NCBI GenBank assembly: GCA_041736305.1
Contig: JBGSTX010000322.1
Coordinates: 1-30,161 of the forward strand
Length of the DNA: 30,161 nucleotides
Origin: Oligoflexus sp.
GTDB lineage: Bacteria > Bdellovibrionota_B > Oligoflexia > Oligoflexales > Oligoflexaceae
Reading direction: 5' to 3'
Position 1 is the stretch's first letter; the number at the start of each line of letters is the position of its first letter. The position numbers were made by a program, and so were the translations under genes. The notes beneath the pieces are model-generated. The model did not search any database and was not told the DNA's origin. It worked only from the letters and a program-made list of their open reading frames with translations. Shown in pieces: positions 27,709-29,783 of the stretch.

Positions 27709-29151
27709 TCAGATTGCCCATGTGTGAACAGGTTGGGCGGATTCCTGATTTTTACTATAAGCCGCCGTCATGGCATCTAAATCTTTGCCATGCGCCAAAA
27801 CCCACTTTCTCTGCCAGCTGGCTCCGTTCTGCATACTGGCGACCCTAGGCTCAAGAATGCGATCTAAATAGTAGCTAATCTCTTCGTCGCTGATCTTGAG
27901 GCTCTTAAGGCCGCGTCGAGCTGCCGGCAAGAGGTATTCGAGCAGCAGCGTCCGCAGCGATATCTCCCCTTTGTCCGCCCAGGATACGCGTGCGTTCAAG
28001 CCATATCTGGCAGCCGCATAGAAATTGCTTCTGGCCTGAGCGAATGGAATAAAATCTTGAGCCTTTCCCAGCTTGCCGGCCAGCTCGTGGCAGACGCCGA
28101 GCAAAAAGGCGAGATCGGCCACCATATCGTCAAGCGAGGGTCCTGCGCCCATCACTCTATGTTCAACGCGCAAAGAAGCTTGACCGTCCAAGCCAACGCC
28201 AATCACCGGGCGGTTCCATCGCCAGATAGTGCTGTTTTGCAGAGCCAGATGCGACAGGTCTTCAGGAGCTCGCTCACTTGTAAACGGCAAAAGTACAGGG
28301 AAGCCGTGGGCATTCTCCCAAAAGAGGTCCATCAGGCTTTCCTGGACATAGTCAGAACCGAAGGTCACTCGTTGCTGCCGCGAACCATCGAGAAGTGTGA
28401 AACCTGGCAGACAAACTGCCTGCTCAAAAAGAGCAATGCGCGTCTCATCCCATAGATCAACGCCTAACAAGTAAGGTGAATTTGCCGCTAAAGCTACGGA
28501 AGCGCACGATACGATCACCGCGGCGTTGAAAGTCCTATTCATCAGCTCATAGGGAGGTTGGATGTGAACCTGAAAAGAAGTTGCTCCAGCCTCTAGCATA
28601 ATATTGTCGTGAATCGCGCGCAGATGCTCATGTCCTTCAATATCAATCTCTAGTGCTTGACCGCGACGCAAATTAAGAACAGATTCATTGAGCGCACGGA
28701 AGCGATCGAAGTCTGACATCGAATCCAGAGACAGCATGGATTTCTTAAGCGTAGGTAGGGTGCCTATAGTCAAGGCGTGTCCATCTCTATCACGCATGGA
28801 TTGCTGGATGCGTTGCCATATTTCTTTGAGCTGGGAAGCTATCCTCTCAAGGCTGCCGGCTGCAATTCGTTCGGGTGGAGCGTTGAGTTCGGCATTAAAC
28901 TTTGAAAGTTCGGGTACGAGCATGGGATCGGCAATACTGGCGATGAGAGCCTTGTTTTCAGCTAGCGGCTGAAAATTTTTATCGACTAGCCACATTTCCA
29001 GTTCGAGACCAACGGTGTACCCATCTTTGCAGAGTGCAAAGCGCCCGTCTTGAAACCACTTCGCTAGGAGATTGGTTTCTTCACGCAGGCGGAGCAAAAA
29101 CCCGCTCATATCGACGCTGGAGCCTGATTTTAGGTCTATTTCCTGTCCCAT
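27709..29151 (-). CDS. Glutamate-cysteine ligase family (GCS2-like) protein
   Basis: VGLELEMWLVD, ELSKFNAELN, SFQVHIQ, ALAANSPYLLG, IWRWNRPV, RVEHRVM. Start MGQEI at 29151 after GAGGAGAAGG. Confidence 0.85.
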   Translation of the reverse strand: MGQEIDLKSGSSVDMSGFLLRLREETNLLAKWFQDGRFALCKDGYTVGLELEMWLVDKNFQPLAENKALIASIADPMLVPELSKFNAELNAPPERIAAGSLERIASQLKEIWQRIQQSMRDRDGHALTIGTLPTLKKSMLSLDSMSDFDRFRALNESVLNLRRGQALEIDIEGHEHLRAIHDNIMLEAGATSFQVHIQPPYELMNRTFNAAVIVSCASVALAANSPYLLGVDLWDETRIALFEQAVCLPGFTLLDGSRQQRVTFGSDYVQESLMDLFWENAHGFPVLLPFTSERAPEDLSHLALQNSTIWRWNRPVIGVGLDGQASLRVEHRVMGAGPSLDDMVADLAFLLGVCHELAGKLGKAQDFIPFAQARSNFYAAARYGLNARVSWADKGEISLRTLLLEYLLPAARRGLKSLKISDEEISYYLDRILEPRVASMQNGASWQRKWVLAHGKDLDAMTAAYSKNQESAQPVHTWAI

Positions 29152-29318
29152 CGCCTTCTCCTCTTCGTAGCCTTCTTCGATCATAGATCAAACTTGCTGC
29201 AAATAGAATGCCAAGGCCATATGCAGTCCTTCGCTTTTGTGTCGCTTGCAGAGGTAGATGTTCTAAAGCGAAGTCGACTGACGGAAAACTCTCTGTCGAA
29301 GAGAACTGTTTCTTGGTG

Positions 29319-29571
29319 GTCAACTACCCGCCTCGAAAGAGGCAGGCATATGAAGAGTGGTTCTGAACATGCCTCACGTTGACCCGCCCGAGCAAGAGAG
29401 GCAACTCTCAAGCTACGTTACGAGCGAATCAGATAGTAACCCCCGGATGCTTCACCAGTCTTGGGCTCTAAGGCAAGTGGTTAAACAGGAGTAAGGGGAT
29501 TAGGCCAGTGCTGCTTGCAAGTAAACCGCTCGATAACTTCGGCAAGGTGACCTTTACCCGCGCAAGCGGAG
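29319..29571 (+). ncRNA. HEARO / omega-RNA scaffold (IscB-associated OMEGA RNA); the guide would be the ~20 nt immediately 5' (about 29299-29318)
   Basis: Conserved HEARO-type motifs in order: GTCAAC (29319) pairing with GTTGAC (29378); GAGAG-GCAA-CTCTC hairpin; CTACGTT; ATAGTAACC..GGATGCTTCACCAGTC..GCTCT; TTAAACAG..CAGTG; AAACC..ATAAC..GGCAAGGTGAC.TTTACC; CCGC-GCAA-GCGG. Long-range pairs CGAGCG/CGCTCG and GCAAGTGG/CTGCTTGC, and pseudoknot TCACC/GGTGA, are all present. Confidence 0.85.
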
Positions 29572-29612
29572 TACCCTGGTGTAAGCCAGGACTGTCTCTC
29601 ACGAGACTGACA

Positions 29613-29638
29613 GCCGGGAAAGACCGGCACCTTTTTTT
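29613..29638 (+). terminator. Intrinsic-terminator-like hairpin downstream of the omega-RNA scaffold
   Basis: GCCGG-GAAAGA-CCGGC followed by ACC and T7. Confidence 0.55.
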
Positions 29639-29783
29639 GGATGATCTCCGACCTGGGAGATAGATTACTCTCCATTCCTCCCACCGCTGAATCGCTGGGT
29701 ATCCTTGTGAGGCGGTTTATGAAGGCAGCACGAGTCATGCGATGACTTGGCTTGGTGCGGCTTGGATGGTTTGTGCACGTCGC

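Follow-up and report, generated by a model that had tools for sequence, protein, structure and literature searches.

The window, meaning the whole stretch of DNA analysed here, is one entire contig (C371) of 30,161 nucleotides. It belongs to a draft Oligoflexus genome of 5.02 Mb that is 92.7% complete and distributed over 392 contigs. Near the 3' end of the window lies a 400-bp element, at positions 29319-29718, that specifies the omega-RNA of an IscB system, an RNA family known as HEARO, and contains no protein-coding gene. Its ends are common to relatives that do encode the nuclease. The element is very probably a protein-less derivative of an ISC / IS200-IS605 IscB transposon, resembling the palindrome-associated transposable elements (PATEs). 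It is followed by the motif ATGAA, the target or transposon-adjacent motif (TAM). From 5' to 3', the features at the locus are:

29303..29318, plus strand: would-be guide GAACTGTTTCTTGGTG, part of the host 5' flank; 15 copies have unrelated sequence up to the edge
29319..29557, plus strand: omega-RNA core (HEARO; cmscan, 103.6 bits), including the first stem-loop at 29328-29347
29558..29590, plus strand: hairpins H1 (29558-29569, GCAA loop) and H2 (29575-29590, GUAA-type loop), beyond the Rfam model
29594..29639, plus strand: cassette in place of iscB, composed of hairpins H3 (29594-29607) and H4 (29613-29628), ACC and seven T
29640..29718, plus strand: transposon end, with hairpins H5 (29644-29661) and H6 (29680-29699) and GAGG at 29709-29712
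29719..29723, plus strand: ATGAA target / TAM, found at 16 of 16 element ends; TTCAT on the other strand
29777..30161, minus strand: fragment of an IS5-family DDE transposase (Pfam DUF4096 and DDE_Tnp_1), a neighbour outside the element

HEARO (RF02033) is the single Rfam family that cmscan matched in the whole window. The match at 29319-29557 on the plus strand covers positions 1-211 of the 211-position model and scores 103.6 bits (E 1.4e-20) against a gathering score of 83 bits. A permissive Rfam scan of 29150-29800 returned no family besides HEARO, and the model matched none of 14 control genomes. The first-pass annotation, made from the letters of the window alone, had called an omega-RNA here and named a covariance-model search as the test. 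The call is borne out, and window 29319-29557 belongs to the HEARO / IscB omega-RNA family. No IscB open reading frame (ORF) lies within the 604 nt downstream of the omega-RNA in the window. This absence does not bear on the RNA family, because the IscB ORF defines the full locus and not the omega-RNA. The IscB and Y1-TnpA matches of the genome all lie on other contigs and none in the window, in agreement with the earlier statement that the window holds no iscB or tnpA.

The genome contains 14 HEARO matches, eight of which are above the cut-off. Among the complete, uncut copies, the window copy has the lowest score (103.6 bits, versus 110.8-134.8 bits for the other six), and the eighth match above the cut-off, on C143, is cut by the contig end. 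The count of 14 is the highest in the genus, where 13 relatives have 0-8 matches and five of these have none. By blastn of window positions 29200-30161 against the window's own genome, the repeated stretch spans 29319-29723. Copies at unrelated loci are 93-98% identical, and the window copy is 96-98% identical to sister copies on C179, C178, C79 and C80. Copies with different flanks, which the first-pass annotation proposed to look for, do exist in the genome, and their 5' flanks are all unrelated.

The edges of the element follow from the copies. The 15 copies examined start at GTCAA(C/T), or at GTAAAC in the case of two, and the 5' edge in the window is the GTCAAC at 29319. On the 3' side, all 16 ends finish with ATGAA, after which the unrelated flanks diverge. 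The element proper is 29319-29718, and the bases 5' of 29319 are flank. The ATGAA at 29719-29723 is host target DNA outside the element, because the empty sites of the sister copy on C342 retain it. The interval first proposed, 29299..29723, does enclose the element but also takes in 20 bases of flank (29299-29318) and the target motif, and is here refined. The two subterminal hairpin ends proposed with it fared differently. The 3' hairpin at 29680-29699 (H6) is real and covaries, but 29299-29318 is flank and not a terminal hairpin. The stem-loop at the 5' end is instead that at 29328-29347, the first stem-loop of the omega-RNA, so that imperfect subterminal hairpins are present at both ends. 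The ATGAA said to follow the element is present, but it ends the proposed interval rather than following it.

The sister copy on C342, which is 93% identical, provides a view of the insertion itself. It lies between ...CGAGGTTTAGA and ATGAAAATT..., at the start of an ETF-beta-type gene (etfB). In nine of the nine same-genus genomes for which loci were returned, the etfB site is empty and reads ...GAGGTTTAGA|ATGAAAATT, with no target duplication. The empty sites vary 5' of the joint, as in ...GAGGTTT(AGA/TTCT...)|ATGAAAAT. The C342 insertion is precise at N|ATGAA and without duplication. For the window copy, a contig of a close strain (X2) tracks 525 nt of the 5' flank, from which it shows 23 differences, then skips window 29325-29718 by joining 29324 to 29719, and continues for another 65 nt. 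The close strain is without the window copy and seemingly without the IS5 fragment from ~29777. The empty sites, the X2 contig and the occurrence of the cassette in all IscB-less copies support the earlier proposal of a mobile, non-autonomous element. When the window 5' flank was searched against 14 same-genus genomes, it gave weak gene matches only and no empty-site orthologue. The stretch L033:1501-1540 of a related genome matches window 29279-29318, including the would-be guide, over 40 nt at 93% identity in a different context. It was rejected as an empty site; what comes after the 40 nt there is GTGAGCAAGAGG... and neither ATGAA nor the element.

Full-length versions of the element are carried by six same-genus genomes, in which an omega-RNA is followed by an IscB of 427-431 amino acids and then by the common end. 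Their omega-RNA matches element positions 1-252 at 76-88% identity, their IscB ORF begins MQRV..PLMPCHP, and element positions ~322-394 align directly after the IscB stop codon. On C254, in the genome of the window, the sequence after an IscB stop codon matches window 29646-29663. Element positions ~276-321 (window 29594-29639) are without counterpart in the full-length elements, and it is this 46-nt insert that makes up the cassette. Across the genus, 27 HEARO loci were classified for IscB linkage, with six that end at a contig edge left unjudged. Thirteen are linked to IscB sequence (11 substantial, two fragments), and the H4 motif of the cassette is present in 0 of these 13. Eight are without IscB in at least 600 nt downstream, and the H4 motif is present in 8 of 8. 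The eight IscB-less copies span different loci, three species and two omega subfamilies. Because an identical insert occurs at many loci, the IscB-less elements spread as RNA-only units and not by separate deletions.

The cassette with a GAAAGA or AAAAGA loop occurs nine times in the genome, and a GAATAGA-loop variant is found in the Fam C IscB-less copies on C59 and in the relative G004. The exact pattern was also scanned in a one-genome-per-species collection (185,579 genomes by description, possibly not counting that of the window itself). Outside the genome it was found at only two further loci, titled Oligoflexaceae metagenome-assembled genome (MAG).

Several diverged or incomplete copies were also seen. 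C159:6260-6370 keeps a 39-codon IscB C-terminal remnant, 46% identical to the IscB of relatives, upstream of the transposon end, which means that some copies arose by internal deletion. C161:308-450 (L062) is a 5'-truncated copy that lacks the omega-RNA core and is reduced to some of H2 plus the cassette and transposon end; it sits at the translation start of a 402-aa histidine kinase. L056 (G009:C8:14579-15069) has no IscB and has diverged to 70% identity, and its omega-RNA contains two additional inserts of ~40-45 nt. Two IscB-less copies of another omega subfamily, L002 (C59) and L058 (G004:C337), end with ...GGTCCAGGTCG, then ATAAAT in both. This suggests that their subfamily may use an ATAA-type motif in place of ATGAA.

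The structure of the RNA extends beyond the Rfam match. RF02033 is a model without the downstream omega-RNA structure, according to the available text of Meers et al. (10.1101/2023.03.14.532601). In full-length relatives, the counterpart of H2 is the hairpin immediately 5' of the IscB start codon, which is visible in L020. In an alignment of nine copies from two species, 97.4% of the alignment cells pair. The covariation score is 0.287, compared to 0.111 for shuffled alignments (0 of 500 shuffles reach 0.287) and at most 0.059 with slid partners. Double-sided changes are concentrated in H2 (three of six pairs) and H6 (six of eight pairs). H3 and H4 are invariant in 9 of 9 copies; this invariance is uninformative on pairing but demonstrates strong sequence constraint. 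In the window copy, H4 together with the seven T fits the pattern of a rho-independent terminator. The T run after H4 varies between copies, from none (C284) to between 3 and 7, and the H4 stem does not.

The element would depend on proteins made elsewhere, and the genome encodes candidates. There are two intact IscB genes, C219:25609-26742 (377 aa) and C254:3540-4724 (394 aa), which are 77.6% identical to each other and both match Pfam RRXRR and HNH. A third sequence, C109:2-724, is an IscB fragment with a 241-aa open frame and an HNH domain; it is cut by the contig start and is 65% identical to the 431-aa class of the relatives. The C219 IscB matches OgeuIscB with an E of 2.5e-48, and the 431-aa class matches OgeuIscB at 2e-28 and TbaIscB at 1e-46. 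The first-pass annotation had asked whether IscB is present elsewhere in the genome, which it is, and had spoken of an uncharacterised RNA-guided nuclease system. The latter was overstated, as these IscBs are ordinary homologues of IscBs with solved structures (~1e-48 and ~1e-28 to OgeuIscB). Y1 TnpA (PF01797) has four matches in the genome, three near-identical C-terminal halves at contig edges (C337:2942-3130, C300:8-112 and C53:11289-11372) and one degraded. The expected Y1 TnpA is thus present as gene fragments at three contig edges, but these are incomplete. The three halves imply a multi-copy insertion sequence (IS), probably active, and the assembly lacks its 5' half. The smallest contig of the assembly is 1663 bp, repeats break the assembly, and contig edges cut through some IscB and tnpA copies. 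Because the assembly drops repeats, the absence of full-length IscB and tnpA genes is weak evidence.

The guide of an omega-RNA is taken from the 5' flank, and a length of 16 nt is assumed here, as in IscB systems. In the mechanism we propose for the window element, Y1 TnpA supplied in trans would move the element as single-stranded DNA. Read-through from the 5' flank would give an RNA that opens with a guide of ~16 nt (29303-29318) to its own insertion site, and an IscB made elsewhere in the genome could load this RNA. The IscB would then cut the vacated site, where GAACTGTTTCTTGGTG + ATGAA is the expected empty-site sequence, and recombination would restore the element, the role published as "restorative homing". 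The guides of the 15 copies have no second genome match with at most two mismatches that is followed by ATGA, and their matches are at chance level. With no second TAM-flanked match, the guides address only their own sites, which fits self-site targeting.

Several observations weigh against an element that is still mobile and served in trans. The omega-RNAs of the intact IscB genes are only ~69-72% identical to that of the window, over short stretches; the C219 and C254 genes sit behind the omega subfamily GTCAATCACCCC..., and the window subfamily is GTCAACTACCCGCC.... The N-terminal half of the 431-aa-class IscB was not found in the genome by tblastn, which returned only the C-terminal 241 aa. 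The tnpA copies cover profile positions 60-121 at most, and the end downstream of tnpA is unlike the omega-side end of the element (three contig edges were aligned, and the other end of the IS is off-contig). No sigma-70-like promoter was found in 29100-29900, a negative not counted as evidence because the promoter type of this organism may differ. Contigs from RNA libraries (X10 and X16) extend over 29319-29561 and no further, with 93-98% identity. They are no proof of transcription, because other copies, other organisms or DNA carry-over could have produced them, and starts, ends and strand are not resolvable. A further 16 listed runs with small matching shares did not enter the evidence. 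The window copy alone among the nine aligned has two unpaired positions in H6, a possible loss of mobility; such mismatches might impair recognition by the transposase. The left edge of the X2 joint, at 29324, falls six bases inside the element edge given by the etfB empty sites, after GTCAAC. It may reflect a footprint, an effect of the alignment or a GTCAAC-like hexamer that was there ancestrally.

The placement of the insertions relative to host genes was examined at 16 element ends, and the 5' flanks, like the guides, in 15 copies. At 8 of the 16 ends, an ORF of 97-402 aa starts at the ATG of the ATGAA. In comparison, 19.7% of 12,570 ATGAA sites open an ORF of at least 100 aa, and the enrichment has a binomial P of 0.006 for the eight ORFs and of 0.025 for the seven that reach 100 aa. 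Seven of the eight downstream ORFs have Pfam domains that start within residues 1-38. The domains at the element-started ORFs are ETF, class-IV aminotransferase, trypsin-like, histidine kinase, SDR, luciferase-like and DUF5985. A Shine-Dalgarno-like 4-mer lies 4-15 nt before the junction in 7 of 15 5' flanks, compared to a background of 12.6% (P = 0.0013). By manual count, 14 of the 16 element ends carry GAGG or GGAG 6-10 nt before the edge; in the window, this is the Shine-Dalgarno-like GAGG at 29709-29712, 6 nt before the edge. Insertions are therefore frequently found right between the ribosome-binding site of a host gene and its start codon, with the element supplying a substitute site. 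The window copy itself lies away from any gene start, as only eight codons follow from its ATGAA. In a relative, copy L056 directly abuts the start codon of an ORF of 418 aa, which looks like a glyA-type gene from its N-terminus, read by eye.

Much of the gene-start enrichment could be accounted for if insertions within genes are selected against. If the placement is read as functional, the element would insert between the host ribosome-binding site and ATG(AA) and would be transcribed from the host promoter, with the host 5' untranslated region (UTR) as the guide. Translation initiation would be restored by the GAGG or GGAG of the element 6-10 nt before its edge, and the cassette hairpins at 29594-29628 may act as a 3'-end, processing or attenuation signal. 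Tentatively, the IscB-less elements could be an independently propagating lineage that rides gene starts and parasitises TnpA, IscB and host promoters at once. Literature searches found no paper on insertion at start codons, and the term "start codon" is absent from the available text of PMC4810608, which is not proof that the observation is unpublished.

Other explanations of the locus were weighed against that of a mobile, protein-less derivative. The window copy may be an inert relic, a member of the family as described that is no longer mobile or used and is stranded in a scrambled intergenic region. We consider this possible though rather unlikely. The private unpaired positions in the end hairpin, the lowest HEARO score among the complete uncut copies and the eight codons after ATGAA all agree with a relic, as do the lack of a promoter-like site in 29100-29900, the truncated IS5 58 bp away and the presence of the matching IscB class only as a fragment. 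A relic is less easily reconciled with a full-length model match above the cut-off, with 96-98% identity to the copies on C179, C178, C79 and C80, which indicates a young copy, and with a site that is empty in the close strain (X2). The missing IscB counts for little in an assembly that drops repeats. A different explanation for the locus is a one-off deletion in place, by which a full-length IscB transposon at this locus lost iscB and never moved as an RNA-only unit. Both ends of the element are homologous to the ends of full-length elements, and the IscB remnant on C159 shows that internal deletions occur. However, all eight IscB-less copies, which occupy different loci in three species and belong to two omega subfamilies, carry the same cassette, and none of the 13 IscB-linked loci does. 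Copies at unrelated loci are also 93-98% identical, and separate deletions would not each give rise to one and the same 46-nt insert. A deletion in place is very improbable.

The gene-start data allow for another reading, in which the family is kept as a cis-acting expression cassette that supplies a ribosome-binding site, perhaps with attenuation by H4 and the T run, and the guide role is secondary. The excess of ends that start an ORF of at least 97 aa (8 of 16, against 19.7%; P = 0.006), the Pfam domains that begin near residues 1-38 in seven of the eight, the GAGG/GGAG at 14 of 16 ends and the Shine-Dalgarno-like 4-mers in 7 of 15 5' flanks (against 12.6%; P = 0.0013) all speak for such a cassette. 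Purifying selection alone, however, would leave an excess of gene-start and intergenic sites, no gene begins at the window copy, and the Shine-Dalgarno-like motif is also present at the ends of full-length IscB elements. A primary role in cis seems improbable to us. The interpretation that we prefer is the protein-less derivative of an IscB transposon.

Much of this biology has precedents. In the available text of Kapitonov, Makarova and Koonin (2016, PMC4810608), ISC transposons that begin with 5'-GTCA integrate at N|ATGA and leave no target duplication. The elements ISC1-1_MA and ISC2-1_MS described there resemble the window element in the 5'-GTCA terminus, insertion 5' of ATGA without duplication, subterminal hairpins, non-autonomy and presumed use of a Y1 TnpA in trans. 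They differ in being 1.3-1.7 kb long and encoding IscB or IsrB, whereas the window element is 400 bp, has no ORF and carries the two-hairpin cassette. In Geobacillus stearothermophilus, the transposon end delimits a HEARO-like RNA, and the TAM is TTCAT (Meers et al., 10.1101/2023.03.14.532601). According to the portion of that article available, IscB and TnpB cut the vacated donor joint and recombination restores the element, and protein-less PATEs often encode omega-RNAs that need to be used in trans. The PATE-like elements related to the ISGst IscB and TnpB elements are like the window element in having ends shared with nuclease-encoding relatives and in the TAM, as TTCAT is ATGAA on the omega-RNA strand. 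The window element is in a different phylum, and neither a conserved cassette nor frequent start-codon placement is mentioned in the available part of 10.1101/2023.03.14.532601. Standalone omega-RNAs have been described as functioning with IscB (PMC9581776, available in part, citing Altae-Tran et al. 2021 Science). The window element shares with these an omega-RNA locus without an adjacent IscB, and by analogy it may also act in trans. Compared to OgeuIscB and other solved complexes (PDB 7utn, 7xht), the IscBs of the genome are clear homologues and the RNA is in the same Rfam family. The IscBs of the genome and its relatives are shorter (377-431 aa) than the OgeuIscB type (~495), and no protein is encoded at the window locus.

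Omega-RNAs that stand alone, PATE-like elements without a protein gene and the ATGA/TTCAT target have all been published before, and no new kind of RNA-guided system is revealed here. What is modestly new is the cassette that replaces iscB together with the frequent insertion between the ribosome-binding site and the start codon. The analysis shows that a little-studied lineage has a family of transposons that is small, looks active and carries only the guide RNA. Together, the full-length IscB elements of relatives, the RNA-only derivatives of the Oligoflexus genome and the empty sites form a natural series, with which the expression of omega-RNAs and their sharing in trans could be studied. 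The conserved cassette and the placement at housekeeping genes (etfB, an ilvE-type aminotransferase gene and, in a relative, a glyA-type gene) are worth the attention of specialists.

The last feature of the window is the IS5 fragment, 58 bp from the element. The 53 bp between the TAM and this fragment (29724-29776) have no other match in the genome. A minus-strand ORF at 29481-30161 that crosses the element was considered and rejected; it is the IS5 transposase frame, extended by chance past the truncation at ~29777. The fragment covers Pfam profile positions 7-87 of 200, ends after ...LIGDKAY and runs off the contig. It is 98.9% identical to C9:7613-7991, where the frame continues for ~95 codons.

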